The translations under genes and the position numbers were made by a program. 64,000 bases of DNA, from NCBI GenBank assembly GCA_963663165.1, contig OY760175.1, positions 3,776,001 to 3,840,000 on the forward strand. The letters are read 5' to 3'. Positions 13,575-57,276 of the stretch are shown one piece after another (the stretch's first letter is position 1; each line of letters opens with the position of its first letter). Source of the DNA: an uncultured Desulfospira sp. (GTDB taxonomy: Bacteria; Desulfobacterota; Desulfobacteria; Desulfobacterales; Desulfobacteraceae). Below the pieces are notes generated by a model. That model made no database searches. It was not told the origin of the DNA and worked only from the letters and a program-made list of their open reading frames with translations.

Positions 13575-13721
13575 TTGACAGTCTCCAAGAATGTGTGTTT
13601 AAACAGCCAAAACAGCGTCAGAAGACGCATTAAGCAAAATAGAACACCAATAACAGCATAAGGCCAAGAAGGTCAGCCGCCGGAAGTCCCGGTGTGCTCA
13701 ATTCTTGGCCTTTTTTATTTT
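13575..13721 (+). promoter_or_regulatory. promoter plus putative attenuator leader RNA (copy A)
   Basis: TTGACA at 13575; GCGTC-AGAA-GACGC hairpin; GGCC-AAGAA-GGTC hairpin overlapping the terminator arm GGCCAAGAA...TTCTTGGCC-T7. Confidence 0.65.
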
Positions 13722-13788
13722 CATGGCACAGCGGCCCCGGTAGCGGCAGTCATGGAACAGGCTCAAAAAAATATAAAAAGGAACCATC

Positions 13789-15276
13789 ATGCTGAATAAA
13801 GAGGAACGAGACCAAAGATGGGCAAACGGGCAGGGGTATAACCGCTATATAACCGGAGAACTCAACTCCTTCCGGAAACAGGCATGGAAACAGATGATAT
13901 GCCGCCATTTTCAAAAGGAACTTTCTTTAGATGTTCTGGATATTGGAACAGGTCCGGGTTTTTTTGCGTGTATCCTGTCTGAAGAGGGGCACCGCGTTAC
14001 CGGGATAGATGCCTCAGAAGGAATGCTTGGCTGTGCTAGAAACAATGCAAAGCTGCTTGGTGTTGGCCCTGAATTTTTAGAAATGGATGTTAACCACCTT
14101 GATTTTCCGGATAATCGTTTCGATGTCCTTGTCACCAGAAATGTCACCTGGACACTGGAGTTCCCGGAAAATGTCTATACGGAGTTCAAACGAATCCTGC
14201 GGCCAAACGGTCTGCTCCTTATATATGATGCAAACTGGCACATGCACTATTTTGATGAAGAGCTGATGAAAAGGGTACGAAAAAGAGAACAGAACCATTT
14301 TGAAAGATATGGTAAAAAAGAAATTGTGTGCAATGATGATACCGATTATTTTGGCTGCCTTCCCTTATCAAATACATTGCGGCCCCAGTGGGATATGAAG
14401 GTTCTGGGACGGCTTGGATTTACCGTGTCTGTAGAGGAAAACGTTGGAAAAGATGTATACGAGGATTGGGAAAAACAGCTATACGGCGAATCTCCTTTGT
14501 TTGAAATCTGCGCTGTCAATAATGAAATGAGCCTGGAGAAAACCAGGATTCAAAACTACTGGCAGACCCGGTCCTCAACATTTGGATTCACCAAGTCGGC
14601 CGAAGAAATAAAAGGATGGCAGGAACGCATCTCAACGTATCTGCCTGAGGGCCGGCTCAAGATATTGGATGCCGGCACCGGCACCGGCTTTCTGGCCATT
14701 GCCACAGCGCTGATGGGTCATGACGTGACAGGGATTGATATGTGTTCCAACATGATTCAAAAAGCCAAAGAAAATGCCGTAAAACATAAAACCGATATCA
14801 CGTTCTTTTGTACAGATGCCGGTGAGATGCCCTTCGAAGATGAGACCTTTGATGTTGTGATTTCACGCAACCTTATCTGGGCATTGATGAACCCGGAAGA
14901 GGTGCTGGTTCAATGGAAACGGATATTAAAGCCAGGTGGACTGTTGATGTATTTTGACGGGAATCATTATACCTATCTCTTTAATGAAGAAGACCGCAAA
15001 GCCCGGGAAAAATATGTTTCCATTACAGGAAACGCCCACCGGGGAGACCCGGGCGGGGTGAATTATGAAGAGATGGACGATGCAGCCCTGGCCCTGCCCC
15101 TTTCAAAGCTTGACCGGCCCCATGAATGGGATGATAAAGTGCTTCCTAAAATGGGGTACAACATTATTGCCAAAGAGGTGGAACGTCCCCAGGAGCTGTT
15201 AAGCCAGGAAATTGCCGAAGGGTATTACACAGTGTTTTTGATTGTTGCTCAAAAGTCCCATAACAACACCAACTAG
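13789..15276 (+). CDS. tandem (double-domain) class I SAM-dependent methyltransferase
   Basis: Two motif-I copies (VLDIGTGPGF; ILDAGTGTGF), each followed by FDV(L/V)(V/I)(T/S)RN..W and KRIL(R/K)P.G. Confidence 0.9.
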   Translation: MLNKEERDQRWANGQGYNRYITGELNSFRKQAWKQMICRHFQKELSLDVLDIGTGPGFFACILSEEGHRVTGIDASEGMLGCARNNAKLLGVGPEFLEMDVNHLDFPDNRFDVLVTRNVTWTLEFPENVYTEFKRILRPNGLLLIYDANWHMHYFDEELMKRVRKREQNHFERYGKKEIVCNDDTDYFGCLPLSNTLRPQWDMKVLGRLGFTVSVEENVGKDVYEDWEKQLYGESPLFEICAVNNEMSLEKTRIQNYWQTRSSTFGFTKSAEEIKGWQERISTYLPEGRLKILDAGTGTGFLAIATALMGHDVTGIDMCSNMIQKAKENAVKHKTDITFFCTDAGEMPFEDETFDVVISRNLIWALMNPEEVLVQWKRILKPGGLLMYFDGNHYTYLFNEEDRKAREKYVSITGNAHRGDPGGVNYEEMDDAALALPLSKLDRPHEWDDKVLPKMGYNIIAKEVERPQELLSQEIAEGYYTVFLIVAQKSHNNTN

Positions 15277-15286
15277 TGATCGTGGT

Positions 15287-16255
15287 ATGCTGAAATATAT
15301 CCTAAAACGGATACTTTACCTGATCCCGATCATGTTCCTGATCTCTTTTATATCTTTTTTCCTTATATATTTGTCTCCCGGAGACCCGGCTCAAATATTT
15401 CTTTCTCAGAAAGGGGATGTGCCCAGTGCCGAAGCCATCTCAGCGCTGCGCAGCCAATTAGGGCTTGATAAACCGATTACGGAACAATATGTGACCTGGC
15501 TTGTGGATATATGCCACGGTGATTTTGGCAACTCAATATCTACAGGCACGGCTGTTTTAAGCCAGATAAAAAAATATTTCCCAAACACCTTGAAACTGAC
15601 GGCCCTGGCAATGCTGATAACATTGATTGTCTCCATCCCTTTAGGGATTTTATCTGCCATCCGGGAGAACCGGCTCACAGACAACATCATCCGGGTATGC
15701 ACCTTTACCAGCAATTCACTGCCCGGCTTTTTTGCCGCCCTTTTGCTGATTTACCTGCTTGCCGTTAAACTCCGGTGGCTGCCCACCATCAGCTCAGGGT
15801 CCAAGAATGGGATTGTCATTCCGGCATTGACCCTTGCGCTGACCATGTCGGCTGTCTATATACGCCAAATCCGGGCCGTATTAATTAACGAATTGCAGGA
15901 AGACTATATCCGCATGCAACGGGCCCGGGGCATCCATGAAAGGACCATCCTTTTCAAAGGTGCCTTAAAAAGCATCCTGCCTTCCATCTTAACCATCGCC
16001 GGTATCAATGTCGGGCAATTGCTGGGCGGGACCGCCATTATTGAGATTGTCTGCACCTATCCGGGTATTGGACGACTTGCGGTGGAGTCTATCACCAACA
16101 GGGACTATCCCATGGTTCAGGGTTACGTCCTTTTGATGGCTTTGATTTATGTATGGGTCAATTTGGCGGTTGATGTGCTGCATGCAATTTCAGACCCCCG
16201 TGTCAGGCATCATATTCTGACCGGGCAAAGCTTCCGGCCGGTTCATGAAAAATAG
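15287..16255 (+). CDS. Ni/peptide ABC transporter permease (NikB/DppB-like)
   Basis: PGDPA, LGLDKP, GDFGNS, EAA-like QEDYIRMQRARG, NRDYPMVQG. Confidence 0.9.
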   Translation: MLKYILKRILYLIPIMFLISFISFFLIYLSPGDPAQIFLSQKGDVPSAEAISALRSQLGLDKPITEQYVTWLVDICHGDFGNSISTGTAVLSQIKKYFPNTLKLTALAMLITLIVSIPLGILSAIRENRLTDNIIRVCTFTSNSLPGFFAALLLIYLLAVKLRWLPTISSGSKNGIVIPALTLALTMSAVYIRQIRAVLINELQEDYIRMQRARGIHERTILFKGALKSILPSILTIAGINVGQLLGGTAIIEIVCTYPGIGRLAVESITNRDYPMVQGYVLLMALIYVWVNLAVDVLHAISDPRVRHHILTGQSFRPVHEK

Positions 16256-17087
16256 ACCGTACAGCCACAATAGCGCAAAACAACGGTTTTATTTCTGGTC
16301 AGCCGTTGTCATGGGGGTGCTCATTTTTGCCGTCATCGGACCGGCATTAACCGAACATGATCCTTTTTTAGTGGACCTGACACAGGTGAACCAGCCCCCG
16401 AGCCGTGAATATATCATGGGAACCGACTATATTGGCCGGTGTGTTTTCAGCCGTCTGGTCAAGGGCGCTGTCCGCTCCATTTACGCGGCGGTTCTGGTAG
16501 TGGCCATCACCTTTGCCATTGGAACCTTGATCGGGGTCCTGTGTGGATATTTCAGCGGAAAACTGGACGCCCTTTTAATGCGCTTTGTGGATGGTGTTCA
16601 GTCGTTTCCAGAGTTGGTGTTTACCATTGCCGTCGCAGGCATGCTGGGTAACGGCATGGTAAACTGCATCATTGCCATGGCGGCGGTGGGCTGGACAGGG
16701 TACGCAAGGCTTGCCAGAAGCCAGGTCCTTTCCATAAAAAAAAAGACCTTTGTCAGCGCGGCCAGACTGACGGGAATGTCAACAGGAGAAATTTTAATCA
16801 AAACCGTATTGCCCAACTGCTTAAGCCCTATGGTGGTTTATGCGAGCATGCATGTGGGAAGCGCCATTTTAGGATTTGCCGGGCTTTCATACTTAGGCCT
16901 GGGAACTTCGCCGCCGTATCCGGAATGGGGCGCCATGCTTAATGACGGAAGAACCAGACTCCAGATTGCCCCATGGGGTGTGCTTTTTCCAGGCCTTGCG
17001 ATTCTGATTGTTGTAATGATCATGAGCATGTTTGGCGACAGTGTAAATGAAATACTCAACCCTCAGCATAAAGAGACCAAACGATAA
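16245..17087 (+). CDS. Ni/peptide ABC transporter permease (NikC/DppC-like)
   Basis: MGTDYIGRCVFSRL, FVSAARLTG, LSYLGLG, PEWGAML. Confidence 0.9.
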   Translation: MKNRPYSHNSAKQRFYFWSAVVMGVLIFAVIGPALTEHDPFLVDLTQVNQPPSREYIMGTDYIGRCVFSRLVKGAVRSIYAAVLVVAITFAIGTLIGVLCGYFSGKLDALLMRFVDGVQSFPELVFTIAVAGMLGNGMVNCIIAMAAVGWTGYARLARSQVLSIKKKTFVSAARLTGMSTGEILIKTVLPNCLSPMVVYASMHVGSAILGFAGLSYLGLGTSPPYPEWGAMLNDGRTRLQIAPWGVLFPGLAILIVVMIMSMFGDSVNEILNPQHKETKR

Positions 17088-18691
17088 TGGCAGACCATAT
17101 ACCGGCAATACCTTCCAGTCAATTTATAATTGAATGCCAACCAATGAAAGGCAAACAAATAAAACAGTGGAAAAGGATGTGCCTCCTTATCCCTGCCGTA
17201 TTGCTGTTATGCACGCTGTTTGCCGGCTGCTCAACCCGGGACAACGACGATCAGACAACCCTGACCTTTGTCTCTGACACCAATACCCATGGGATATCTT
17301 TAGATCCCGCCATTGATTACTGCGGTTCGAGAAATGTCAGTATCGGGACATGTGAAACGCTTTTTAAACTCAACAATGACACCCTTGATGTTGAAGCCCA
17401 TCTGGCCGGCTATTATACCCGGGCCGATGACCACACCTGGCAGATTAATATCCGGGATGACATTGTTTTCTCTAATGGAAAAAAGCTGACAGCGGCGGCT
17501 GTAAAGAAAGCTTTGGCCTATGATTTCAATGGAATAGTCCGCCTTTCCACAATGCTGGACATTGATTCCATGCAGGCTGATGGCCAGGTTTTGACCATCA
17601 AGACCAAATCCGTTGTCGCAACCCTTCCCAGAATTCTAACAGACCCGGGTGCCCTGATTTTTGACACGGAAGGGACAACAGATTACTCAAAAGGCGTTAT
17701 CGGAACCGGTCCTTATATATTGGAAAGCATGGATGAAGAGGGCAACTGCAAGCTAATAAGAAATGAAACGTACTGGCAGGGGGTGCCGGGGGCTGACAAG
17801 GTACATACCAAATTTATTTCAGAGGCATCGGCCATCACCATAGCGCTGCAGGCGGGCGAACTTGATTTTGCAAAGATAGAGCCCTCTGACATTTCCCTTT
17901 TTGAGAGCAGTGACGAATATGAGGTCATGGGGTATGAGACCGGGCGGGTTTATTTTTTGTATCTCAACCCGGAATATGCCGCCACAAAAGATCCGGCTTT
18001 GAGAAAAGCCCTGACCTATGCCTTTGACCGGCAAGCCTATCTAGATGCCATATATGACGGACGGGGAAAAACGACCACCACCATTTTTCCGGTCTGGTCA
18101 GGGTTCTCTGTCAACGATGTTTCCCAGGTAAAATATAACCCTGATAAGGCCAGACAGATCCTGGCGGATGCCGGTTACAGGGATGGTGACGGTGACGGTA
18201 TTCTCGAAAAAAATGGTGAAACCATTTCACTTACAATTGCCTGCTATGCCAATAATGGGTTCTCGGTTTTGAGTGAGGTTCTTCAGGCGTCTTTGCTCAA
18301 GCTGGGGATTAACTCCCATATCATGGTTTCGGATGCCATTGTGGCGGATTTAAAAAAAGGACATTTCAATGTGGCCACATATGGATATACAACCCTGACC
18401 ATGGGAGATTGTTTTAACTTTCTAGAACCGGTATTCCGGACAGGGGCTTTTGCTAACTTTGCCCATTTTTCCAGCACAACTGTCGATTCCCTGCTAACTA
18501 AACTGAAAGCCACATCCGATGTGGCCGCCCGAAAGCAGCTGGCCATTGAAATTCAAAAAAACATCTACGCTGAAGATGACCATGTGTTTCTCATTCATAT
18601 CAGCACATACAACGTCGTTAGAAAAGGTGTAAAAAATGTCACCCCGGATCTTGGCAACTCTTTTAATTTATGGAAGATAACAAAGGAATGA
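17087..18691 (+). CDS. ABC substrate-binding lipoprotein, family 5 (NikA/DppA-like); true start probably 17144 or later
   Basis: Lipobox LFAGC; SLDPA; IRDDIVFSNGKKLTA; IGTGPY. Confidence 0.88.
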   Translation: MADHIPAIPSSQFIIECQPMKGKQIKQWKRMCLLIPAVLLLCTLFAGCSTRDNDDQTTLTFVSDTNTHGISLDPAIDYCGSRNVSIGTCETLFKLNNDTLDVEAHLAGYYTRADDHTWQINIRDDIVFSNGKKLTAAAVKKALAYDFNGIVRLSTMLDIDSMQADGQVLTIKTKSVVATLPRILTDPGALIFDTEGTTDYSKGVIGTGPYILESMDEEGNCKLIRNETYWQGVPGADKVHTKFISEASAITIALQAGELDFAKIEPSDISLFESSDEYEVMGYETGRVYFLYLNPEYAATKDPALRKALTYAFDRQAYLDAIYDGRGKTTTTIFPVWSGFSVNDVSQVKYNPDKARQILADAGYRDGDGDGILEKNGETISLTIACYANNGFSVLSEVLQASLLKLGINSHIMVSDAIVADLKKGHFNVATYGYTTLTMGDCFNFLEPVFRTGAFANFAHFSSTTVDSLLTKLKATSDVAARKQLAIEIQKNIYAEDDHVFLIHISTYNVVRKGVKNVTPDLGNSFNLWKITKE

Positions 18692-19620
18692 GCCCCCTGA
18701 TTTCCATTGAGCATCTAAATGTAAATTATGGGGATGTCCCTGCCTTAAGGGACATCTGCCTGACGGTTCAGGATAATCAGATTATAGGGATTGTGGGAGA
18801 ATCCGGATGCGGCAAAAGCGCCATCATCTGTTCGGCCATGGGGATTTTAGGGAACGGCGGCCATGTTTCCGGCGGTGATATTTTGTACCGGGGCACCTCT
18901 CTTTTGTCACTTTCAGCAAAAAGATTTCGCCGACTGAGAGGCAAGGAAATTGCCCTGATTGCACAAAATCCCATAGCTGCTTTTCATCCCACCCGAAAAA
19001 TCGGCAGCCAGCTGCATGAACTTGTCCGCAGCCACAAAGGCCTCACCTGCACCGAAGCGGACCTGCGAATCCTTGAGCTGTTTAAGCAAATGAACCTTAA
19101 GGAAGGGAAACAGCTTTTAAACCGGTATGCCTTTGAGTTAAGCGGCGGAATGTGCCAGCGGGTTTCCATTGCCATGGCCATGGTTTTACGGCCGCAGCTG
19201 TTGTTTGCCGATGAGCCGACGAGCGCTCTGGACGTTATCACACAAGCACAGGTCGTCAAAGAGCTGATGAAAATAAGGGAAAATTTCGGAACATCCATTG
19301 TTATGGTATCTCATAATATGGGGGTGATCTCCCGCATGGCAGAAGAAATTGTTGTGATGTATGACGGTATTATTGTGGAACGTGGTAAAAAAACACATAT
19401 TCTCTGTCATCCATTTCATGTCTATACACAAAATCTGATCAAAGCGATTCCGCGACTTCATGCCCCTGCCGCCCATGGGGTGCAGACATTTGACAAAACC
19501 GGGATAGCCCCCGGGTGCCCCTTTGGAAACAGGTGCGCCAAACGCAGCAAAATTTGTATGGACCAAATGCCGCCGCTCAGGCATATCAAAAACAAACACT
19601 GGGTGAGATGCTGGAATTGA
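18688..19620 (+). CDS. ABC ATP-binding protein (DppD/OppD-like)
   Basis: GESGCGKS, LSGGMCQR, DEPTSALD, C-terminal GCPF..RC; ATGA overlap with the SBP stop. Confidence 0.92.
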   Translation: MSPLISIEHLNVNYGDVPALRDICLTVQDNQIIGIVGESGCGKSAIICSAMGILGNGGHVSGGDILYRGTSLLSLSAKRFRRLRGKEIALIAQNPIAAFHPTRKIGSQLHELVRSHKGLTCTEADLRILELFKQMNLKEGKQLLNRYAFELSGGMCQRVSIAMAMVLRPQLLFADEPTSALDVITQAQVVKELMKIRENFGTSIVMVSHNMGVISRMAEEIVVMYDGIIVERGKKTHILCHPFHVYTQNLIKAIPRLHAPAAHGVQTFDKTGIAPGCPFGNRCAKRSKICMDQMPPLRHIKNKHWVRCWN

Positions 19621-19638
19621 CATCCAAAAGGGAAAACC

Positions 19639-20397
19639 ATGAACCTGCTTGATATCCACAATCTGGATAAATGGTATTATTCTGTAAAAGAAGGCCAGAC
19701 CGTTCATGCGGTCGACCATGTGAGTTTTTCAATGGCCCAAGGGGAATTTTGCGCCCTTATCGGAGAAAGCGGTTGCGGGAAAAGTACGGTTGCAAAGCTT
19801 ATTACAGGACTTTTAACACCCGATGCCGGAGACATTCTGTTTGAAGGCAAATTGCTGACAGCGCCATACCCTAAAAGCATATATAAAAGGCTTCAAATGG
19901 TTTTTCAAGTGCCTTGGGATTCTTTTGATCCGCGCAAAACCATTGGCAACAGTTTAATTGCCATGCAACGCAATTTTGGATCATCAAAGCAGGACGCCAT
20001 AATGAAATCCGAACAGGCTCTTGAAAAAGTCGGTCTAGAAAAAAAAATAATGACCCGGTACCCGGGCCAGATCAGCGGCGGAGAATGCCAGAGGGCTGCC
20101 ATTGCCCGATCACTGACAATTTCGCCTAAATTAATCATCTGTGATGAGATAACAAGTGCCCTGGATGTCAGTGTGCAGGCCCAGATAGTGGAGTTGCTGC
20201 AAACCCTTAGGACCGAATTTGATTTGTCATTATTGTTTATCTCCCATGATCTGGCACTGGTACAGGGACTATGTGACAACATCATGGTGATGCGGGATGG
20301 CGTCATTGTTGAAAAAGCAGCAACCAAAGAACTGCTTGAAAACCCCCGGAATGATTATACCATTGAACTTTTTTCCTCAGCCTTTGACATATCTTGA
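19639..20397 (+). CDS. ABC ATP-binding protein (NikE/DppF-like)
   Basis: GESGCGKS, ISGGECQR, DEITSALD. Confidence 0.92.
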   Translation: MNLLDIHNLDKWYYSVKEGQTVHAVDHVSFSMAQGEFCALIGESGCGKSTVAKLITGLLTPDAGDILFEGKLLTAPYPKSIYKRLQMVFQVPWDSFDPRKTIGNSLIAMQRNFGSSKQDAIMKSEQALEKVGLEKKIMTRYPGQISGGECQRAAIARSLTISPKLIICDEITSALDVSVQAQIVELLQTLRTEFDLSLLFISHDLALVQGLCDNIMVMRDGVIVEKAATKELLENPRNDYTIELFSSAFDIS

Positions 20398-20667
20398 ATA
20401 GCCTGCCGGTTCAGTCAACAAACACCTTTGAACTTCCTTTGCAGCAAAAAATTGGCCATGGTGCCGGTTAGGCATATCAATTTGTCTTAGCCCCATAAAT
20501 GCCTATAGATTTTATAGAATGGATTTCTGATTTAGGATTTTTTTTTCAATAGATAAACATTTTAATATCGGCACCAAAAAGCCCAGGCCTTTGAAGCTCT
20601 AAAGCCGGACAAAATTGGCCTTAATTTCTAACCCGATAAAAGGCAGGAAAATACCTAAAAATCCTCT

Positions 20668-20822
20668 TGACAAGCCTATCTGGATACTATTAGATCGGGT
20701 GCTAATCGCCATCGCAGAAGCATGGTGAGTAAAAAGTTCAACCCATATTTAACTTAAAGGCCAAGAAGGCATTATTGACGGACACACCCGTGTCCTTTCA
20801 TGCCTCTTGGCCTTTTTTATTT
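20668..20822 (+). promoter_or_regulatory. promoter plus putative attenuator leader RNA (copy B)
   Basis: TTGACA; CGCCATCGC-AGAA-GCATGGTG; GCC-AAGAA-GGC overlapping terminator AAAGGCCAAGAAGGCAT...ATGCCTCTTGGCC-T6. Confidence 0.65.
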
Positions 20823-20849
20823 AGAGGAAAAGGAGAGGAAAAGGAAAAG

Positions 20850-22937
20850 ATGAAACGTGTATTGATTATGTTAAGTGTGCTGCTGCTGTTGATTCCTTCA
20901 TGGGGGTTCGCAGAAGAAACAGACAAGGCAAAAACCAACGCCGAAAATAATGATTCGTCTGTTATTCAATCAGGGACCGAAACCGAGGCAGAACGGGACA
21001 AGGTCTATATGAAAATAGGCGAAATTACGGTTACAGGGAAAGCAGATTACCTGACCACAGCCGATGCCCCGGCCTCGGTGGATGTCATTGGAGCCGATCA
21101 GATAGAGGCTGAAAATGTGGACTTCAGCATGGAACTGCTCAAAAAAGTACCGGGATTTTACTACGGGGACTGGAACCAGGGGGTGACCTCAGCCATGGCC
21201 TCTTTGCGGGGATTTGACAACAACCATGATTCACCCGTCAGCCTGATTGTGGACGGCATCCCCCACAACCCCGGCGGCAGCATGGATATCCAACCCTTTT
21301 TCCCCCTGGAAATCGAGCGGATTGAGGTGGTCAAGGGAACCAGCGATCCCCGTTACGGTTTGCTGAACATTGCCGGTAACATCAACCTGCACACCAAACA
21401 GGGGGGCAATTTCACCAAGGCCAAACTGTTGACCGGCAGTTATGAGACCTATGATGCCAGCCTGATCACAAGCCGGGAGGATGGCGGATTCAGCCAGACT
21501 TACTTTGTTGGGTATCGGGAAACCGAAGGATATCGGGACCACTCAGACGTTCAGAAAGGGGCCGCCTCGGGCAAATGGTTCTATACCAGTAAAGACCAGA
21601 ATTTTTCCATTGGCGCCATTGCAAGGGTTTTTAGCATGGATGCCAATGCACCGGGCTATATCAGTAAAGAAGACGCTGAAAACGATCCCACCAAAGTGGC
21701 GGAGTGGGCCTATTCCGACGGTGGGGAACGGGAGAACCAACACATCAGCACCCACCTTGACTATGCCTTTTCAGACCAGTTGACCTGGTCTTTTAAGACC
21801 TATTATCAGCACCGGGAAAACACCCGGTGGTGCCGGTGGAGTCTTGCGGGCAGCCAGCAGGAACGGTATGCCGACAATGACCAGTACGGGGCTATTTCCA
21901 CCCTCTCTTATGAACTTGTGGATACCTTTATCCCCAGACTCACCCTCAACTGGGGCATGGATTACCAGCACTCGGATGACATCTCCGCGACCTGGTACTC
22001 CGACGACCGGATCCGCCGGGCCGGCGATCCTAGAAATTATTACGACCAGACCTGGTATTACTGGGGCAGCTATGTCCAGGCGGATGGCGATATCAATGAC
22101 TGGCTCCGCTTGACCGCCGGTCTGCGCGTGGATAGTTTTGACGGGGAAATGACCAGCGGGATCACCGGGCTGACCACGGACATGGTGGATATGGATTATA
22201 TCTGGCAGCCCAAGGCCGGATTTATCATCACCCCTGTTGATGGTTACAACTTTTACGGCAACTATGGCCGGTCTTTTCAGACACCGGGCTCTCCGACCCT
22301 GTATGGACAGAGTACGGCAGGCACCGCCATTTCCAGCGATGTTACCTATTCCAAGAACGACGGATGGGAGCTGGGCATTAAAGCCTCTCCGAAGAACTGG
22401 TTAGCCTTCCGTTTAGACTACTGGCAGATGACCGCTTCCGACGAAGTCCGGGAAAAAGGCGACGGCTCACTGGATCTTATCAATGCCGGCAAAACCGAGC
22501 GCAAAGGATGGGACTTTTCCCTCAGTGTCCGTCCCCATAAATGGATTTCGGTGTGGGGTTCATACTCCATTGTTGATGCCACGTATACGGATCCCGGTCC
22601 CACCAATGCCGCCATTAAGGGCAATGAAATCGAGAACGTACCGGAATTCACCTCAAAGGTTGGCGTGGATTTTACCCACCCTTCAGGTTTCTTCTCCAAT
22701 TTCTGGCTGGAGATGCAGGGCGATTACTATGTTGACTCTGCCAATACGGTGGAAAAGGACGGGGGCTACAATATCCTTAACGGCTCTATCGGATTCAAGT
22801 GGAAAAAGGCCACCATCGGCATAGATGTCAAAAACGTATTTGATACCAATTACTGCTCCTTTGTCTGGTTTAACGAGAACGGATACAACCCCGGAGACGG
22901 TAGAAGCGCCTATTTGTGGGTATCTTTAGACTTTTAA
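20850..22937 (+). CDS. TonB-dependent receptor
   Basis: Signal peptide; plug (GEITVTG, SLRGF, LIVDGIP, IERIEVVKG); barrel ending in terminal Phe (VSLDF). Confidence 0.93.
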   Translation: MKRVLIMLSVLLLLIPSWGFAEETDKAKTNAENNDSSVIQSGTETEAERDKVYMKIGEITVTGKADYLTTADAPASVDVIGADQIEAENVDFSMELLKKVPGFYYGDWNQGVTSAMASLRGFDNNHDSPVSLIVDGIPHNPGGSMDIQPFFPLEIERIEVVKGTSDPRYGLLNIAGNINLHTKQGGNFTKAKLLTGSYETYDASLITSREDGGFSQTYFVGYRETEGYRDHSDVQKGAASGKWFYTSKDQNFSIGAIARVFSMDANAPGYISKEDAENDPTKVAEWAYSDGGERENQHISTHLDYAFSDQLTWSFKTYYQHRENTRWCRWSLAGSQQERYADNDQYGAISTLSYELVDTFIPRLTLNWGMDYQHSDDISATWYSDDRIRRAGDPRNYYDQTWYYWGSYVQADGDINDWLRLTAGLRVDSFDGEMTSGITGLTTDMVDMDYIWQPKAGFIITPVDGYNFYGNYGRSFQTPGSPTLYGQSTAGTAISSDVTYSKNDGWELGIKASPKNWLAFRLDYWQMTASDEVREKGDGSLDLINAGKTERKGWDFSLSVRPHKWISVWGSYSIVDATYTDPGPTNAAIKGNEIENVPEFTSKVGVDFTHPSGFFSNFWLEMQGDYYVDSANTVEKDGGYNILNGSIGFKWKKATIGIDVKNVFDTNYCSFVWFNENGYNPGDGRSAYLWVSLDF

Positions 22938-22956
22938 GGAATAAAAAGGAAAAATC

Positions 22957-23727
22957 ATGAGAACTAAAATAACGTTGTTTTTGTCTTTGATGCTGTTCGC
23001 ATTGGGTTCCCAGGCCTTTGGCCATGAACTCTGGGTCAATGCCCTGCCGCCGGAAAACGGACTGATCCGGGCGGATATCGGGTATGGGCATGACTTTCCC
23101 ACGGCCGAGACCATTGCTGATGACCGGTTGCACATATTCAAACCCCTGGTACTGGTAACCCCGGAAAAACAGATAGAGATGGTCCAGTCCGGAGAAAACT
23201 ATGCCTACCAGGTAAAAATGGACCTGAAAAAGGAAACCTGCATGGTTCTGGGATTCTACCGCCCGACCTTCTGGTCCAGAGGGGAGTCCGGCTGGGCACA
23301 GACAGACCGGATTCAGCGTCCGGATGCGGATTACGTTGAGGAGGCCGTAATGTACGGCAAAACCATTTTAAACATCAACGGGGCCGCTGACGATGCCCTG
23401 ATCAAAAAGCCTGTTGGAATGCGCCTTGAAATTGTCCCGCTGGTCAATCCCGCCACGGTAAAGGCGGGGGATAAATTTCCCATGCAGGTCCTGTGCGACG
23501 GAAAACCGGCCCGAGTGGTACGGGTCGTTGGATGTTTTGCCGGGTTCTCGGACAAAGGATATATGGCCTTCTCCGGAGAGACAGATGTCAAAGGCATGAT
23601 TGATTTTATCCCGCTTAAAGCCGGATACTGGATTGTTAAAACCAGAGAGACCCTAAAGAACAAGGACAAAACACGGGCAGACGAGGTGGTCTTGGCGTCC
23701 ACCCTGACCTTTACCATCCAGGAATAG
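22957..23727 (+). CDS. DUF4198 periplasmic protein (Ni/Co uptake-associated)
   Basis: Signal peptide then HELWV; GYGHDF; RLEIVPLVNP; C-terminal STLTF. Confidence 0.85.
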   Translation: MRTKITLFLSLMLFALGSQAFGHELWVNALPPENGLIRADIGYGHDFPTAETIADDRLHIFKPLVLVTPEKQIEMVQSGENYAYQVKMDLKKETCMVLGFYRPTFWSRGESGWAQTDRIQRPDADYVEEAVMYGKTILNINGAADDALIKKPVGMRLEIVPLVNPATVKAGDKFPMQVLCDGKPARVVRVVGCFAGFSDKGYMAFSGETDVKGMIDFIPLKAGYWIVKTRETLKNKDKTRADEVVLASTLTFTIQE

Positions 23728-23748
23728 AAAAGCTATACCCAAAGCCCT

Positions 23749-26687: not shown

Positions 26688-26690
26688 TCT

Positions 26691-27875: not shown

Positions 27876-27883
27876 AACGGTTT

Positions 27884-28825
27884 TTACCCCGCCGCCCTGT
27901 CCGGTACAGGGGTCTGGTTAACGATACCCCATAGGATGTCCCGGGCCCGCTCCCCCCTGAGCCGTTCATTTTCATTGATAATCAGACGGTGGGACAGAAC
28001 CGGTTCTGCCAGGGCCTTGACATCGTCGGGAAGCACATAATCGCGGTTTTCCATGGCGGCCCGTGCCTGGGCGGCGCGCATCAATGCCATGGCCCCCCTG
28101 GGGCTGGCGCCGTAACGGATCTTGTCATGATGCCGGGTGGCCGCAACAAGGGTTGTGATATATTCCCGGACAGCCCCTGAGACGAGGATCTGCTTTCTGG
28201 CCTGCTGCATGGCCAAAATCTGTTCAGGTGACGCCACGGAGGATAATCCGGCAAGGGGATCATCAACCTGAAAGCGCTTTAAAATTTCCATTTCCTCTTC
28301 TTTTTTGGGATACCCCATGTCGACTTTAAGCAGAAAACGGTCCAGCTGGGCTTCAGGCAACGGGAAGGTGCCTTCCAGTTCAACGGGATTCTGGGTGGCG
28401 ATGACAAAAAAGGGGGCGGGCAAGGGGTAGGTTTGGCCGTCCACCGTCACCTGGCGTTCTTCCATGCTCTCAAGAAGGCTGGACTGTGTCCGGGGAATGG
28501 TGCGGTTGATTTCATCGGCCAGCAGGATGTTTGTCATTACAGGGCCTCGCTGAAATTGGAAACAGCCCTTGTGCTGGACGTAGATATTGTACCCGGTAAT
28601 ATCCGAGGGCAACAGATCCGGGGTGAACTGGACCCGCCGGTACTGCCCGTCGATGGATTTTGCCAGGGCCCTGGCCAGCATGGTCTTTCCCACCCCCGGA
28701 ACATCTTCGAGCAGCACATGGCCCTCAGCCAAAAGCCCCACGATCATCAGCCGGATGCAGGTCGTTTTGCCGACAATGACCCTGGAGATGTTATCTATTA
28801 TGTCGTTGCACAGGTCAAAATCCAA
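27884..28825 (-). CDS. MoxR-family AAA+ ATPase
   Basis: HVLLEDVPGVGKT, RVQFTPDLLPSDITG, LADEINR, TQNPVE.EGTFPLPEAQLDRF. Confidence 0.95.
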   Translation of the reverse strand: MDFDLCNDIIDNISRVIVGKTTCIRLMIVGLLAEGHVLLEDVPGVGKTMLARALAKSIDGQYRRVQFTPDLLPSDITGYNIYVQHKGCFQFQRGPVMTNILLADEINRTIPRTQSSLLESMEERQVTVDGQTYPLPAPFFVIATQNPVELEGTFPLPEAQLDRFLLKVDMGYPKKEEEMEILKRFQVDDPLAGLSSVASPEQILAMQQARKQILVSGAVREYITTLVAATRHHDKIRYGASPRGAMALMRAAQARAAMENRDYVLPDDVKALAEPVLSHRLIINENERLRGERARDILWGIVNQTPVPDRAAG

Positions 28826-29109
28826 AACAAAAGTTCCTTTACCAGATGGCTAAAAAAAAATGGTGCCGTCTTTCACAAGGCAGCATCCTATCCTCAATTG
28901 CCGGGCATTTCAATGGGATTCTTTGCGCCTGTTCAGGGCAATCCCAGCGCCGCCGGCATAAATTTTCAACGGCGTGACAAGCCGCCATGCCCACTGGTCA
29001 AGATATCCGGATGAACCGATAGGGTCGTTTGGGATACTCTCTCAACAGAAAACAAAGTACATCCTGAAAGACCGGCCGCACCATCAGATATGGATGAATT
29101 TATAATGTC

Positions 29110-29155
29110 ATAATCAAGGTTTGACCCCGAACGTCCGATGACCCCGAACGTCCGA
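29110..29155. repeat. TGACCCC-type element end with adjacent 17-bp tandem duplication
   Basis: ATAATCAAGGTTTGACCCC is identical to 37438-37456; TGACCCCGAACGTCCGA occurs twice. Confidence 0.75.
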
Positions 29156-29239
29156 AAATTTTCTTTTCATTTTCCCCAAAAAAATTTATCGTCAAATAAC
29201 GCTGAAAATTTGAGATTTATCCATAAAAGGAGGATCATC

Positions 29240-32200: not shown

Positions 32201-32530
32201 ACCGTTGGGTTTCTGGATGTCAGCAATATGGAACTGATCTCCGGAGCGGTCAACCCGGGGGATGACGGATACATCAAGCTGACCGGCAACACATTCTCCA
32301 ATGCAACCGTCCATGACGTGGAGGCCGGCCGGCTGATCAATGATCCCATGGACAACGGTAACAGCGGGCTGAACCCTGATGAGGATATTGTGGGCTGTCT
32401 CATCGACTGGAATGAGGATGACCACCATTGTCCGGATTATCCGCCTGATTGCGACCAGTGGGATGAAGACGAGAAAGAGTGCGGGTGCGGGCAGGACGGA
32501 ATCGCACCGCCCAGCGAGCCGGGAATTTAA
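29240..32530 (+). CDS. large secreted multidomain protein (LecA-like lectin, EF-hand/dockerin-like, 2x cadherin-like beta-sandwich, beta-helix)
   Basis: AGGAGG RBS, signal peptide; GALAGRIG..FFIG..SGTLYL..DNS; DLDQDYDVDGKDL; L..LSV...F....Y repeats; Cys/Asp-rich tail. Confidence 0.75.
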   Translation: MKIFLRYGMVLVTALLCVYIQNVQSDSLWSDDVDSVYSPEAPLGTLWVEAGALLSVSAAEDDQWRILNIGTLYDWTNANGLSFDYEGIPYGALAGRIGEDGDWFFIGSDFCQTASQSGTLYLACWEPSGNFSDNSDAITVTASLASFDPADLDQDYDVDGKDLFRYLQDLSALDLESFAAIFGWVDTPATADLQTLSVSPGRLASVFSADQSDYLVEVENETSEIQVTALPADPLATVWISDTLVDPGTPFAVSLDLGANYIPVRVVSQNNRTEKTYSLLVARKGTAGLSGLSAEGYDLIPAFSPDTAVYTIYAASDTTEVQLNLEPGDGSDQIQVNGTLLDDPALPVYIPLESEMTEAQILVAASDGSEFAYFVYIKRNAAPSQTAFVKDDAVEANEFESLPEAVAYLNTNLLSGQTGEIRIQTSSAMVVDTLDLTRNIILTVEPGASNVIFGPSTYPLIINTWAGADISGLCFTGSPAFTINSGAGLCVAGSSFSSDTTVNIEDSVSSTEAKGGGYYSQFLNFVGNHLSGDLNIMMSGSADTDFVTSGNQAESIQFAGTGEFSGDANLKFKANLTDDLSIMATMKGNTHASVTGHRNVVNTDIGITMEDDARISLEQHTSASVGLNFMGLNGKIQLDNVTTVNAAYKMDMAKAQYTGRSNAITNFNASLLYSHGDSIYGITQEGGKFLQNYSIKAAGAGLNATLTLGLDGVNIYGKYNLIAGGNVTAKFNNNTTISLDAYMKLPGKLASLDFDHMTCYGKLSVELPESGVEVYLNAQYGILEEGLLINFTDLGGVSGTLDHIVTVTGGLILRFGAEEPPTPENKAAALTKGNTLVLKNLEIKDTNGLPGLYLEKINTAVTIQDSTIESQNWAIYCAGINAAVTIKDNANLTGGIFLNGDPDGTGVLIDQPHEVSANTITQTMAGGACLWSHSIRNVQVSGNTMTAAAGAHGIMVSGGKLVVDGGSIIAPGAYTSAALGAGPSSGGTVGFLDVSNMELISGAVNPGDDGYIKLTGNTFSNATVHDVEAGRLINDPMDNGNSGLNPDEDIVGCLIDWNEDDHHCPDYPPDCDQWDEDEKECGCGQDGIAPPSEPGI

Positions 32531-32772
32531 AAACTTCGTAAAATATCCGGAATAGACTGCTGGGGGCCATGTCCCCAATTTCTGTTTATTCTCCATGCGC
32601 TGGTTGACAAAAAGGATGTTCCTATCCTACATTGGATTTAATGTTTGACTGCCAATCGACCTTATGCATCTTGGAAATTGAACGGGTAAGGAAATCACAA
32701 GGTCCTTTCATGCCATAGGTTTTCGCAGAGGAAGCAGGACAGGATTCGCCTTCCAAACTCAAGGAGGATTTT

Positions 32773-33357
32773 ATGAGAAAAAGAATGGTTTCCGTTGCAC
32801 TGATTTTTTTTATTGGATTATCGCTTACCGGGTGTCCTAAACAGTCAAGCACATCGACAGCCACGAAAAGCGCACTTGAAAGTCAGATCAAAAGCATTAA
32901 ACAGATGCTCACCGAGATTAAGGCGGAAATTGCCAAGCACCAAAACAATATCGAGAATATGAGAAACATACTGAGAAACGCGCAGCAAACCGGCACGACA
33001 CCGAACGTCGGCGGCTTGAAAGAGTATGCCAATGCCGCCGGGGAACGGACCCCAGCTTACCACCAGGCGCCGCCCTGGAAGCAGGATCTGATCGATAAAT
33101 TTGAAAATATGCACGTGTTTAATGCGATGGATGCTGCAGCCCTGGGTGCCGCGACAACGGATGGTAATGTTGAGGAAGTATATATTAAGGTTGAGATTAG
33201 GCGGACCAGCAGGTTTATCAGAATGCTTGAAGTGCTGGCAACACGGCAGGGAGAGGTCCTGGCACAGGCTGAAGCAGACCTCCAGCGCATCAACGAAACG
33301 GCAGCCCCATCTTCCACAACGACGGCTGACGAGGGGTTAAGCGATGGCGGATATTAG
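32773..33357 (+). CDS. coiled-coil lipoprotein, hypothetical
   Basis: AAGGAGG RBS; lipobox LTGC; heptad-rich helices. Confidence 0.75.
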   Translation: MRKRMVSVALIFFIGLSLTGCPKQSSTSTATKSALESQIKSIKQMLTEIKAEIAKHQNNIENMRNILRNAQQTGTTPNVGGLKEYANAAGERTPAYHQAPPWKQDLIDKFENMHVFNAMDAAALGAATTDGNVEEVYIKVEIRRTSRFIRMLEVLATRQGEVLAQAEADLQRINETAAPSSTTTADEGLSDGGY

Positions 33358-33481
33358 GGTGCATCTTGGGGGCTCATGGCATAGCAGGCTGATCAGCGGC
33401 TGGAAAAGGCACCTGGACTTCGCCGCCGGATGGGTTTTCACTATCTGCCCACGATTAAATCATTTTCAAAGCGAGGAGAAT

Positions 33482-34093
33482 ATGAAGGGCTTTAAGGTCT
33501 TGATCCTGTTGATGTGTATCGCCTTTATGGCCATACCGGGTGTGCAGGCCGAACCCGGGTGGCAGATGCAATCAATTGCTGACTTTAACGTTGCATTTTG
33601 CCGAAAAGCGGATGCCTCAGGCCTCAGCGTCTACTTTACCCCTTCGGGCGCGGTCTGGGTGTGTGTGATATTGCCGGAAGGGACAGAAAAAGTTGATCTT
33701 TCCCGGCCCATTGAGGTGCGGGTGGATCAAAGCGAACCCTTTTTAAGCTCACAAGATGCTCTGCAGCCTGAGCAGACGGCGGTGGCCTGGCAGATTAAAG
33801 AACCGGGAAGCGGCATCATCAACGGATCGCTCCTGGATCACCTGATGAAAGGCAGCTTAGCCCATGTAAGCGGCCATGTCTCTGGCGGGCACAGGGTTAA
33901 GATGACGGTCCCGCTTAACGGGTCAAGGGATGCCATTGAGAGCCTGTTGTCCATGCGGATGAAGAACCAGTTTTCTGATGTTCCTGCTACCAATGTTTCT
34001 CCTCCTGCCAATATTTCTCCACCGCCGGCTACGCCCGTTGTGCCCCCTAATGCTTCCCGTGTTCGCCGCATGCCAAGGGCGGGGAATCTCTGA
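33482..34093 (+). CDS. periplasmic hypothetical protein with Pro-rich tail
   Basis: GAGGAG RBS; signal peptide ending VQA; VPLNGSRDAI C-terminal pattern. Confidence 0.7.
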   Translation: MKGFKVLILLMCIAFMAIPGVQAEPGWQMQSIADFNVAFCRKADASGLSVYFTPSGAVWVCVILPEGTEKVDLSRPIEVRVDQSEPFLSSQDALQPEQTAVAWQIKEPGSGIINGSLLDHLMKGSLAHVSGHVSGGHRVKMTVPLNGSRDAIESLLSMRMKNQFSDVPATNVSPPANISPPPATPVVPPNASRVRRMPRAGNL

Positions 34094-34097
34094 AATA

Positions 34098-34151
34098 AAA
34101 AAAGCACCCCCCGACAGGCACAACACATTGCGCCTGTCGGGGGCATATTTC
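34098..34151. terminator. bidirectional terminator hairpin
   Basis: A6-GCACCCCCGACAGGC...GCCTGTCGGGGGC between convergent genes. Confidence 0.65.
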
Positions 34152-34200
34152 AAATATGATAACTTCCCGTTATCCGTAGAATAGAAAAAATATCCCCGTA

Positions 34201-34953
34201 CTAATCTGATTTTAAGGCATCCATGTTAAAGGTTAAGGATGTCCCGTACCAGATGATCTGCCTGTCTTTTACCGGCACCTCGATTTTAGCACTGATTAAC
34301 TGGAAATTTTTATCAGACAGTGTAACGGAAAAACGGTCATCGGTCTTTACCGTTGTGAGTTTCTGGGCACCGCTGGCCTGGGTCAGGGCGGCCTCATGTA
34401 TCTGCTGCCCCATAAAATAAAGCCGGACCTGCAGAGACTCGCCCTTGGCCAGTGCTGCCGGATTTTTTAACGGCACGATTTCAAACCGTTGATTCAACGG
34501 TTCCGTGACCCACGGATGCCAGCTCTCTATATGTTTCATGAACTTATAGGAGTGGCCCTCTTTGACCACATCCTTCAGGCCGGTGATTCTTTTGTTTTGC
34601 CAGCCCTGGGTTGTGTGCATCCAGTATTTGTTATAAACCAGGGCCGTTAAAACGCTGAAGGGCTGCTGAACTTCCAGATAGGCTCCGGCACTTTCCGGCT
34701 TCCATCCAATGCTGACGGGAAGCCATTTTTTGTTTTCAAGGTGTCCGGCCGCCTGAACAACCCGCTCCGGCTCATAGGGGTCGCCTTGGGCAACCCCTTC
34801 CACCATGTGCCCCATCACAATTTCGAACCCTTTTTCCTGTGACCCGTCCAGCCACCAGTCATGGGCCATGGCCGCCGGCACGGATAAACACAGCAGAGCC
34901 GAAACCATTACCGGGATCACAACGGCTTGAAACAAACCATTCTTATTTTTCAT
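34201..34953 (-). CDS. DUF4198 periplasmic protein (second paralog)
   Basis: Signal AMA then HDWW; MGH; RFEIVPLKNP; TSLTF. Confidence 0.8.
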   Translation of the reverse strand: MKNKNGLFQAVVIPVMVSALLCLSVPAAMAHDWWLDGSQEKGFEIVMGHMVEGVAQGDPYEPERVVQAAGHLENKKWLPVSIGWKPESAGAYLEVQQPFSVLTALVYNKYWMHTTQGWQNKRITGLKDVVKEGHSYKFMKHIESWHPWVTEPLNQRFEIVPLKNPAALAKGESLQVRLYFMGQQIHEAALTQASGAQKLTTVKTDDRFSVTLSDKNFQLISAKIEVPVKDRQIIWYGTSLTFNMDALKSD

Positions 34954-34975
34954 GATTCCACCTAATTTTTGAGTA

Positions 34976-37036
34976 TCAGAATGTATACTTAACGGTCAGT
35001 TGAAGATATCTGCCATCGCTGCCTGAGTATTGATTGTACCCGCTCCAGTTGCTGACATATTCTGAATAGGTTTCATCAAACAGGTTTTTCACATCAAACG
35101 AAATGGTCCACTGATCGGAAAACGTATGGGCGATTTTAAGGTCAACCACATCGTATCCCCCGTAACTATCGGTATTATCACTTCGGGTATACCATTTTCC
35201 CACCTTGTTATACCAGACGCGCAACGAGGTGTTGGTGGGGAATATATACTCAACCCCCAGCTTTAAGATTGATTCCGGTATGGCAGAGACATGGTTGCCG
35301 TAATATGATTTGCTATCATCTTCATAGGTGGCTTCCTGGTAGGTATAGGCCCCGAAAAACTGGAGATTTTCCAACGGCATCAGGTTTATCTCGATTTCGT
35401 GCCCTTTCCGGACCGTTTCCCCCTGGTAGCTATAGCCCCATTCGTTGGCGATGCTGTCATAAGTACCGGTGATTTCATCATCATTTACACTGTAAAAATA
35501 AGCATAACGAATCATAATCTGTTCAATGGGGCTGGCCTTGATTCCGCCTTCATACTGGATAAAATTGCTTTCATCGGGTGCGTCTGAGGCATATTTGGCT
35601 TCATTTTTGGGCAGCTGAAACCCAGTCCCGACATTAGCGTATATGCTGTAATTGGGCAAAAATGTATAAATCACGCCCGCGCTGTATGTCCAGATATTAT
35701 AATCGCTGAGGTCCATGGAGATGTCTGTCAGCCGGTTGGTGAAATCACCGTCAAATGTGTCAAAACGGCCCCCCGCAAACAGGCGCAGCATCTCAGACGG
35801 ATCCCAGTTGGCCTTGGCGTATATCCCGAAATTGAAAAGGTTGTAATCGTAATCCCTGGACTGAGAATCCCGGTGCTGGCTGGTGGTATTGTATTTTGTT
35901 TCATCCGTGTCATAATTTCTGTAATCAAATCCAACATCAAACCGCAGGTTCTGGCCTTGTGCCATGGGCATATCATACCCGAGGTTCATCAAGGCACCAT
36001 AAACGTTGTGTTCAAAATGGCCTTCGGTCTGATTGCCGCCGTATGTTGAGAACCGGCTGTAGTCCACATCCTGATACCAGAATTTGAACGTCAGGGGCGT
36101 GTTCTCATTGATATCCCAGTCCGCATGCAGCTGAATTTCAGCCATATCCGTATATCCGCCGTCATCATCCATTACCGACTGGGTGGGATCGGCCTCCCAC
36201 TCAGGTTCCGTCAGGTATCCGGCAGCATCCCAGTCCGCAGAAAACGCATGGGCGATCAGGCCGATCTGAAGGTCCTGGCTTGGGCGGTAGAACCACTTGC
36301 CGTATATATTCTGACGTTCATAGTCGCTGCTATCCCGGTATCCTTCCGTATCATAGGCCTCCACGACATAAACCTGGTTGAATTTGTTATCAAAATGTTC
36401 GGAACCAATGCTGGCAAATCCCTTTTTGGTATCAAAACTGCCATAGGCCAGTTTGGCTGTTCCAAAATCTCCGCGCTTGCGGGTGTTGAAGTGAACGCTG
36501 CCAGCCCTGCACCAGTTACCGTATTGGGCGTCAATGGGGCCTTTAACAACTTCAATGCTTTCAATGTCGTCAACACTTAGCTGGGTTAAATCCGCAGCAC
36601 CATCGGCCGGGCCGAACGGATAGTTGTAGGGAATTCCGTCAATGGTGATCAGGGTATGCTGCCCGTGTCCGCCGGTACCAAAGCCCCTCATGGTAAACCC
36701 ATTTGGAACGCTCCCCGAATTGTAATCCCCGACTGCAAATCCGGGAACGATCCGCAAAATATCCAGCGCAGTATCGGCTTCCTGTTTAGCGATTTCATCC
36801 TCTCCGATGATATCCACTGAACCGGGCAGGTCCGCAGAATGGTTAACTTTCTTTGCTTTTACCGTCATGTCGCCGATATTCATGATCACCTGGTTTTTTT
36901 CCTCATCCGTGTCCAAGGCCTCCTGAGCCTGGCTGGTTGAAGTATCTTCAGCAGCTACCGCAAAAGGACCGGCAACAAGAATACCTGCAATAATTAAAAT
37001 CCACATCCGCAGCAACCAGCTAGCTGTACCTTTCAT
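34976..37036 (-). CDS. TonB-dependent receptor (second paralog)
   Basis: AAAGGAG RBS; GDMTVKA, TMRGF, ITIDGIP, IESIEVVKG; terminal VKYTF. Confidence 0.93.
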   Translation of the reverse strand: MKGTASWLLRMWILIIAGILVAGPFAVAAEDTSTSQAQEALDTDEEKNQVIMNIGDMTVKAKKVNHSADLPGSVDIIGEDEIAKQEADTALDILRIVPGFAVGDYNSGSVPNGFTMRGFGTGGHGQHTLITIDGIPYNYPFGPADGAADLTQLSVDDIESIEVVKGPIDAQYGNWCRAGSVHFNTRKRGDFGTAKLAYGSFDTKKGFASIGSEHFDNKFNQVYVVEAYDTEGYRDSSDYERQNIYGKWFYRPSQDLQIGLIAHAFSADWDAAGYLTEPEWEADPTQSVMDDDGGYTDMAEIQLHADWDINENTPLTFKFWYQDVDYSRFSTYGGNQTEGHFEHNVYGALMNLGYDMPMAQGQNLRFDVGFDYRNYDTDETKYNTTSQHRDSQSRDYDYNLFNFGIYAKANWDPSEMLRLFAGGRFDTFDGDFTNRLTDISMDLSDYNIWTYSAGVIYTFLPNYSIYANVGTGFQLPKNEAKYASDAPDESNFIQYEGGIKASPIEQIMIRYAYFYSVNDDEITGTYDSIANEWGYSYQGETVRKGHEIEINLMPLENLQFFGAYTYQEATYEDDSKSYYGNHVSAIPESILKLGVEYIFPTNTSLRVWYNKVGKWYTRSDNTDSYGGYDVVDLKIAHTFSDQWTISFDVKNLFDETYSEYVSNWSGYNQYSGSDGRYLQLTVKYTF

Positions 37037-37120
37037 CACATAGATCTCCTTTTCTAAAAAAAATCGCATTTGAATAACTTTAACGGAGTAACTGTTTGAA
37101 AATAAGCCCTTTTCCACAAA

Positions 37121-37271
37121 TAAAAAAAAGCCATAAAGATCAACAGGATTCAGCCTGCCTGTTACCTTCATGGCTTTTTGAATATACGGATTCTACGCTT
37201 ATTTTATGATTTTACTTCTTCTTCGTGAAGAGAATTGGCCCCCGTTTAGCCAATAGTTTTTACTTTGTCAA
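37121..37271 (-). promoter_or_regulatory. promoter plus putative attenuator leader RNA (copy C)
   Basis: Minus strand: TTGACA; CTTC-ACGAA-GAAG; GCC-ATGAA-GGT overlapping terminator AAAAAGCCATGAAGG...TCTTTATGGC-T8. Confidence 0.65.
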
Positions 37272-57267: not shown

Positions 57268-57276
57268 GAAAACACC

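Follow-up and report, generated by a model that had tools for sequence, protein, structure and literature searches.

Three operons in a stretch of genomic DNA from an uncultured Desulfospira sp. raise the question of what kind of RNA element precedes each of them, which signal it answers to and what reads it. The stretch, hereafter the window, comprises 64,000 nucleotides (nt) (contig OY760175.1 of assembly GCA_963663165.1, positions 3,776,001 to 3,840,000), and the genome that holds it, labelled G000, is one contig of 6.74 Mb and 96.7% complete. Operons A, B and C each lie behind a leader of the same letter, with an upstream hairpin, P1, and a second hairpin, P2, that overlaps an intrinsic terminator. 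We show here that the leader is a multi-phylum family, widespread in anaerobic bacteria that are mostly without NikR. Very probably, it is an attenuator for a nickel regulon.

Layout and alternative folding of the leaders

All three leaders carry the same ordered elements: TTGACA, P1, an A-rich linker, P2, a variable internal hairpin, a complementary 3' arm and a run of six to eight U. In leader A, on the plus strand, the -35 hexamer TTGACA of the putative promoter lies at 13575..13580, P1 at 13615..13628 (5 bp, AGAA loop at 13620-23), P2, the candidate antiterminator, at 13663..13673 (GCC-AAGAA-GGU) and the terminator at 13662..13716 (internal variable hairpin, U6 tail). Leader B, on the same strand, has TTGACA at 20667..20672, P1 with one bulge at 20706..20728 (AGAA loop at 20716-19), P2 at 20760..20770 (GCC-AAGAA-GGC) and the terminator at 20759..20818 (U6 tail). 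Leader C is read from the minus strand, with TTGACA at 37266..37271, P1 at 37217..37231 (5 bp, ACGAA loop at 37226-22), P2 at 37164..37174 (GCC-AUGAA-GGU) and the terminator at 37122..37175 (U8 tail). On reading the sequences we found in all three leaders the elements that the initial annotation had listed, and its loop-to-loop distance of about 46-55 nt agrees with the 46, 47 and 55 nt between P1 and P2 in A, B and C. Its positions for TTGACA were right in A (13575) and C (37271, minus strand) and one nucleotide off in B. A sigma-70 scan calls no promoter at the three leaders and their -10 boxes are not canonical; therefore, the promoters are assigned from the -35 hexamer alone. A leader peptide was rejected on reading the leaders, as a short ATG frame is found in B only, and Fur or NikR operators were set aside after a by-eye, non-systematic look at some promoters only. 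Directly upstream of the promoter of leader C (window 37290-37400) lies a direct repeat of about 40 nt with a partial third copy.

The full leaders A, B and C fold into the terminator, with z scores of -6.5, -6.9 and -3.4 against 200 shuffles. This state is 10-14 kcal/mol more stable than the one in which P2 is enforced (-29.0 versus -18.6 kcal/mol in A, -29.6 versus -17.8 in B and -21.8 versus -7.7 in C). P2 by itself is weak, with 3-4 bp and -2 to -4 kcal/mol, and its strands double as the 5' arm of the terminator, so that the two structures exclude each other. This agrees with the mutual exclusion that had been proposed from the letters. When the leaders are truncated ahead of the 3' arm, P2 appears in the folds of A and B. 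Because P2 is weak and the terminator far more stable, termination would be the default state.

The leader family and its regulon

A strict pattern for P2 and terminator, which has 9 sites in G000 and does not pick up leaders A and B of the window, matches in 65 of 81 family-level genomes (one match of the reversed-pattern control overall) and in 51 of 301 phylum-level genomes (no control match). A scan of a species collection gave at least 122 loci; among the 80 matches listed most are of Desulfobacterales type, and the rest include Clostridia, Sporomusa, Thermodesulfovibrio and Treponema. Together with the covariance-model search of the phylum that the initial annotation had suggested, this takes the family far beyond three copies and into several phyla.

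The statistics on P1 and on a third hairpin, P3, use 158 distinct leaders defined solely by P2 and terminator. In 76 of them a hairpin whose stem has at least 5 bp and whose loop is (N)NGAA lies upstream, compared with a mean of 1.75 and a maximum of 4 in 100 shuffles, and nine control loop endings in place of GAA gave between 0 and 4 hits. The stems of P1 vary freely in sequence, and in these 76 leaders P1 and P2 are spaced by 16-95 nt (median 52.5). Within the terminator insert, a GAA hairpin (P3) occurs in 32 of 158 leaders (shuffles: mean 7.2, maximum 13). Twin hairpins, as initially described, are supported, though P1 was detected in only about half of the members by the strict test. The motifs GCYAA and AGYAAAA, seen in the three window leaders, did not turn out to be family features: they were found in 3 and 4 of the 76 leaders (the latter as AGYAAA), and both together in none. 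In the alignment A3 of 57 sequences most paired positions are fixed by the search pattern, and one free terminator pair is the only one to count as covariation; its two sides pair in 55 of 57 sequences, and 21 two-sided changes were counted. The P2 stem gave no informative covariation, and its optional fourth pair is formed in 29 of 57. Loops with GGA are rare (2 of 30 loci viewed), and all 5 clostridial pattern matches have GAA, though the pattern allowed GGA.

We scanned 107 of 142 automatically chosen downstream open reading frames (ORFs), after dropping 31 short-locus fragments, 2 near-duplicates and 2 short ORFs. A Pfam match was obtained for 71, of which 62 are of nickel/cobalt-uptake type or associated with it (among them CbiM 6, DUF4198 4 and DUF3842 5) and 9 are unrelated; 36 had no match. 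Upstream of DUF4198 in family f22 (L235, L236, L237) we observed GAA leaders that have no clear U-tailed terminator and lie near the ribosome-binding site; in these the switch may act on translation.

For the regulon of G000 we combined pattern scans with a covariance model that had been trained on 57 P2/terminator sequences, the three window copies among them. The 22 matches reduce to 18 sites once four opposite-strand shadows are dropped; 17 of these have E<0.005 and the remaining one has E 0.148. By pattern, the P2 loop is GAA in 15 and GGA in 1. An unbroken upstream (N)NGAA hairpin with 4 bp or more is present in 10 of the 18 (leader B is missed owing to its bulge), and TTGAC lies within 130 nt in 11. 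Sixteen leaders precede metal-uptake-type genes. The first genes downstream are a TonB receptor in seven cases, AraC and then TonB in two, a FecCD ATP-binding cassette (ABC) transporter in two and an SBP_bac_5 ABC transporter in one, with single cases of a methyltransferase plus Nik-type ABC transporter, DUF3450-ExbBD-TonB, FmdE and a methyltransferase. The initial annotation had proposed a TonB/DUF4198/Nik-ABC/methyltransferase regulon from three operons; in this genome the regulon has 18 members.

The two further leaders precede an [FeFe]-hydrogenase operon and maturases. The former (minus strand; L001:269-5218 and L166:1227-2514, corresponding to G000:C1 3090978-3097217) holds an unknown gene of 277 codons, the large and the twin-arginine (Tat)-type small subunit, a TonB receptor, a hydrogenase-protease-like gene, DUF3842 and CooT. 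The maturase operon (plus strand; L230:1947-7352 and L249:1849-5158, G000:C1 about 1751900-1760700) encodes aspA, hydF, a gene that resembles the [NiFe] large subunit and whose N-terminal cysteine motif is altered, hydE, a gene like nifH, an unknown gene and one like nifE; hydG is not among its annotated genes. Thus, an [FeFe]-hydrogenase and an unusual maturase cluster are tied to the leader regulon.

In the window, operon A (13789..20397, plus strand) consists of a tandem class I methyltransferase, two permeases, a NikA-like SBP_bac_5 protein and two ABC ATPases, and its first permease scores above the Opp2B nickel-permease cut-off. Operon B (20850..23727, plus strand) encodes a TonB-dependent receptor, with a likely start at 20850 judged from sequence, and a DUF4198 protein. 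Operon C (34201..37036, minus strand) has the same two genes, the receptor probably starting at 37036 by the same judgement and the DUF4198 protein being divergent (35.2 bits, cut-off 34). Two leader-controlled TonB receptors (L007:4070-6220 and L009:3806-6013) resemble the FCYXU-motif family, one with a score of 857 against a cut-off of 825 and one below it with 686. Two regulon members are broken (the pair L010:654-5166 / L008:4553-6190): two inserted ORFs split a TonB receptor, and the gene of a substrate-binding protein is in two overlapping pieces.

Candidate signal and candidate reader

The predicted NikR regulon of delta-proteobacteria combines nikKMLQO with the Fe-only hydrogenase hydAB in a nickel-sparing switch (PMC545781, in the excerpt consulted). 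We found no NikR in G000 (the search control was positive in 5 of 14), and among the 301 phylum genomes NikR is present in 5 of the 51 with the leader versus 137 of the 250 others. NikK of the predicted regulon we take to be DUF4198. Since the leader regulon matches this predicted make-up and the leader nearly excludes NikR, nickel appears to be the likeliest signal. The same mechanism might instead respond to cobalt, iron or a general trace-metal shortage, which we consider distinctly unlikely. The targets do include FecCD/Peripla_BP_2 transporters, AraC, ExbBD-TonB, TP_methylase genes and S-components of energy-coupling factor (ECF) transporters, and those of FecCD, AraC and TonB type could equally be iron or cobalt related, which tells against nickel. 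Set against this are the permease above the nickel cut-off, the DUF4198 and CbiM targets, the [FeFe]-hydrogenase and HydF/HydE operons, the exclusion of NikR and the linkage to CooT. Many anaerobes rely on nickel enzymes and yet have no NikR, and the leader offers a testable answer as to how their nickel supply is controlled. A nickel label would extend to many TonB receptors, methyltransferases, FmdE and ECF components, and the [FeFe]-hydrogenase and the unusual maturase cluster would be linked to nickel shortage.

The attenuator is probably read by a protein, and DUF3842 is the most likely factor, with its gene neighbour CooT as the presumed sensor. CooT follows both of the DUF3842 genes in G000, and one of the pairs closes a leader operon. 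Phylogenetic profiling for a co-occurring protein, as initially suggested, was carried out on named candidates: DUF3842 tracks the leader, being present in 49 of 51 strict-pattern-positive phylum genomes and missing from two, versus 67 of the 250 others. It is nearly exclusive with NikR, which occurs in 13 of 116 genomes with DUF3842 and in 129 of 185 without it (DUF3842 in 13 of 142 NikR genomes). The covariance model matches 44 of the 67 DUF3842 genomes that are negative by the strict pattern, and 25 of 30 model-found loci that were viewed show P2 and terminator by manual filter. Among 80 genomes without DUF3842 the model matches a single one, and weakly. Within seven families (f16, f36, f39, f44, f49, f54 and f58) the tested DUF3842-negative member has no leader and its DUF3842-positive kin do. 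DUF3842 is also present in all five leader genomes that were tested outside the phylum. For Clostridia the model matches 13 of 40 genomes with DUF3842 versus 2 of 30 without; those two are plain terminators, as are some of the 13, and the true clostridial variants precede CbiM and ECF S-components and retain the GAA loops.

The CooT family is nickel-binding (PMC6344411, in the part consulted, citing Timm et al. 2017). The copies considered here match PF10133, and Cys2 is invariant in 33 rows that had been selected on that motif. Their predicted structure superimposes on 6FAN with Z 12.4 and a root-mean-square deviation (rmsd) of 0.8 over 60 aligned residues; in a fold search only CooT itself scores above Z 8, and Hfq at Z 2.8 is uninformative. 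CooT is present in 50 of the 51 strict-pattern-positive genomes. As a reader on its own it was rejected, because it is net acidic (charge -2 to -10), occurs in 178 of all 301 phylum genomes and, in the 27 CooT-only genomes among the 80 without DUF3842, is never accompanied by the leader. A predicted complex of two CooT with one DUF3842 scored 0.47, compared with 0.14 for the best control, which is weak support: three runs gave 0.47, 0.48 and 0.00, contacts agree in at least 0% and the partner has a predicted local distance difference test (pLDDT) value of at least 81. Of the solved pairs, 116 of 157 reached the mark for such complexes, as did 2 of 215 mismatched pairs; those that did so with a score of 0.60 or less were just 18 of the 157 solved pairs and both mismatches. 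A search for longer forms of DUF3842 returned six singletons, one of which (P0123, 384 residues) joins DUF3842 and CooT domains in one chain; this is a single record and may be an assembly artefact.

Several observations weigh against the proposed attenuator with DUF3842 as its reader. G139 and G216 have the leader and CooT, but DUF3842 was not found in them (95% complete), and with G139 family f28 breaks the within-family pattern, so that seven families agree and one disagrees. Conversely, 23 of the 116 phylum genomes with DUF3842 have no leader; in family f22 DUF3842 is present in 10 of 10 genomes and the leader in 1 of 10. In Clostridia DUF3842 occurs in 68 of 200 genomes and the strict pattern in 3 of 201, and most of the genes are without CooT or a nearby leader: the start motif of an adjacent CooT was found at just 3 of 20 clostridial DUF3842 loci, and these 20 loci gave no covariance-model match better than E 0.31. 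The strict test detects neither P1 nor P3 in 65 of the 158 leaders. The co-occurrence statistics for leader, DUF3842 and NikR overstate significance, since related genomes are not independent. The model of DUF3842 (pLDDT 94.6) is a small Rossmann-like domain with a glycine-rich loop, whose best fold match (Z 9.2, rmsd 3.2, 98 residues aligned) is tied with many enzymes. DUF3842 has no solved homologue by sequence, and no RNA-binding family was noticed among the fold matches listed, which excludes nothing. Since the fold is generic and the gene often stands under the leader, DUF3842 may itself be under the control of the leader instead of controlling it. A nickel-responsive attenuator with a different protein reader, in which DUF3842 and CooT are merely co-regulated nickel-handling members, would suit the two leader genomes without DUF3842, the enzyme-like fold and the 5 of 107 cases in which DUF3842 comes first behind the leader; moreover, the proteins considered were ANTAR, CsrA (in G000 only), NikR, DUF3842 and CooT, and not those of an unbiased screen. 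We nevertheless regard it as unlikely, given that the occurrence of DUF3842 follows that of the leader both across two phyla and inside families, and that its near exclusion of NikR suits a regulator better than a chaperone. That DUF3842 and CooT take part in reading the leader seems to us somewhat likely.

We therefore lean towards a nickel-responsive, protein-dependent transcription attenuator with DUF3842 as reader and CooT as sensor, for which alternative folds, conserved GAA loops, gene context and co-occurrence provide the in silico basis and from which we infer sensing and binding. At low nickel, the factor would bind the GAA loops during transcription, with P1 serving to recruit it and P2 to hold it. 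P2 would have to be bound before the 3' arm is made, for which the insert leaves roughly 20-35 nt. The bound factor would block the terminator and allow read-through into genes for nickel import and nickel-free hydrogenase. With ample nickel the factor would be inactivated, probably via CooT, and transcription would stop at the terminator. In lineages without NikR the attenuator might stand in for it. If so, DUF3842 would gain a function; a literature search on it returned unrelated work only. A bolder version, to which we give slightly less than even credence, is that DUF3842-CooT constitutes an undescribed nickel-sensing RNA-binding antitermination system, in which a new RNA-binding fold reads (A)NGAA loops under a metallochaperone-type sensor, takes the place of NikR in much of a phylum of sulfate reducers as well as in parts of the Clostridia, Nitrospirota and Spirochaetes, and turns cells over to the import of nickel and to an [FeFe]-hydrogenase that needs none.

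Apart from the leaders, the window contains a type I restriction-modification cluster (53072-60164) with a Schlafen/AlbA_2-ATPase gene between hsdR and hsdM, and the C-terminal part of a Lon protease fused to a response-regulator receiver domain (3486-5495, minus strand).

Comparison with known leaders and regulators

Leaders of the EutV-type ANTAR system carry dual hexaloops with A1 and G4, and a linker lengthened by 20 nt abolishes antitermination by EutV (PMC8934654). As far as the excerpt of this source goes, ANTAR targets are like the leaders described here in having two small hairpins, the second within the 5' arm of the terminator, and sequence-specific purine-rich loops on weak hairpins that need protein. 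They differ in loop, linker and targets, which here are (A)NGAA tetra- and pentaloops, 16-95 nt and metal uptake. Overlap with the terminator is the one ANTAR feature of four that the leader shows. P2 can be closed as a hexaloop in none of the 158 leaders. Upstream AxxGxx hairpins number 28 with at least 4 bp (shuffle mean 18.8, maximum 26) and 6 with at least 5 bp (mean 1.9, maximum 6), and the upstream GAA hairpins comprise 51 pentaloops and 25 tetraloops, versus about 1 in shuffles. CsrA-type loops follow the consensus ANGGA. Sites of CsrA/RsmA are similar in their A-N-G-x-A loop, short stem and several copies; here the loop is GAA and not GGA, and the overlap is with a terminator and not with the ribosome-binding site. 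Reading of the loops by CsrA or an ANTAR protein might be considered since ANGAA is one base off ANGGA, GGA variants do exist (1 of 18 in G000, 2 of the 30 loci) and the layout resembles ANTAR targets. This seems highly improbable, as no ANTAR protein was found in G000 or in 31 of 55 leader genomes (24 positive; the search was positive in 31 of 71 overall), upstream GGA loops are not enriched (5 of 158; shuffle mean 2.3, maximum 5) and the single csrA of G000, the genome in which it was looked for, is flagellar, between flgL and fliW. The contrast that the initial annotation drew with ANTAR and CsrA loops is borne out by these counts.

The initial annotation had left the choice between a protein-dependent antitermination motif and a riboswitch, and the former is now favoured. 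In a protein-free metal riboswitch, nickel or cobalt would bind the GAA-loop hairpins or a loop-loop contact and shift the balance of P2 and terminator. Such a reading would fit the genes downstream, which resemble those behind metal riboswitches, as well as the conserved loops and the overlap with the terminator. Conserved sequence is, however, limited to about 11 nt in P2 and a loop of 4-5 nt, with P1 often missing and its spacing variable, and an importer needs termination at high metal, where a ligand that stabilises P2 would do the opposite. A riboswitch is thus less likely, for want of a conserved core of aptamer size and because its logic would be inverted. It would also leave the co-occurrence with one protein family unexplained, and we judge this reading very unlikely. 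The NiCo (czcD) riboswitch, in the part of the source consulted, has a four-way-junction aptamer before czcABC-type genes and resembles the leader as a metal-related element with a terminator in anaerobes (PMC11672702); the leader has no four-way junction, and its targets are importers. Rfam 15 covariance models gave no relevant match on the window (E<=5) and none on leaders A and B alone (E<=10), on 11 homologous loci or on a GGA variant, in line with the initial view of an uncatalogued RNA. About 1.3 kb upstream of one GAA leader there is a cobalamin riboswitch (L054:4348-4530, minus strand), whose GCC-A-[helix]-GAA-GGC internal loop resembles P2 with a helix in place of one base; this may be chance.

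A further candidate motif, NiCo-AnGGAG, attributed to Weinberg et al. 2017, presumably consists of small A-n-purine-loop hairpins before nickel/cobalt transporter genes. Going by its name, it would differ in that loops of our leaders are nearly always ANGAA and rarely GGA, and the two may overlap. The name does not occur in the main text of PMC5737381. We found no description of the leader in the literature searched, which left out subscription papers and the supplements of PMC5737381 and of PMC11109978, a paper that covers a Desulfobacteraceae genome; these supplements may hold the motif. The regulon of NikR is alike in its nickel transporter operons, which include an additional periplasmic component, and in the Fe-only hydrogenase hydAB (excerpt of PMC545781), but NikR is a DNA-binding repressor, whereas control by the leader would act at RNA termination and mostly where NikR is missing. 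The present analysis adds the 18-member regulon, its targets among [FeFe]-hydrogenase and maturase genes, and profiling in both directions against DUF3842, CooT, NikR and ANTAR. The leader works like an ANTAR leader, and it matches neither the NiCo riboswitch nor any family of Rfam 15.

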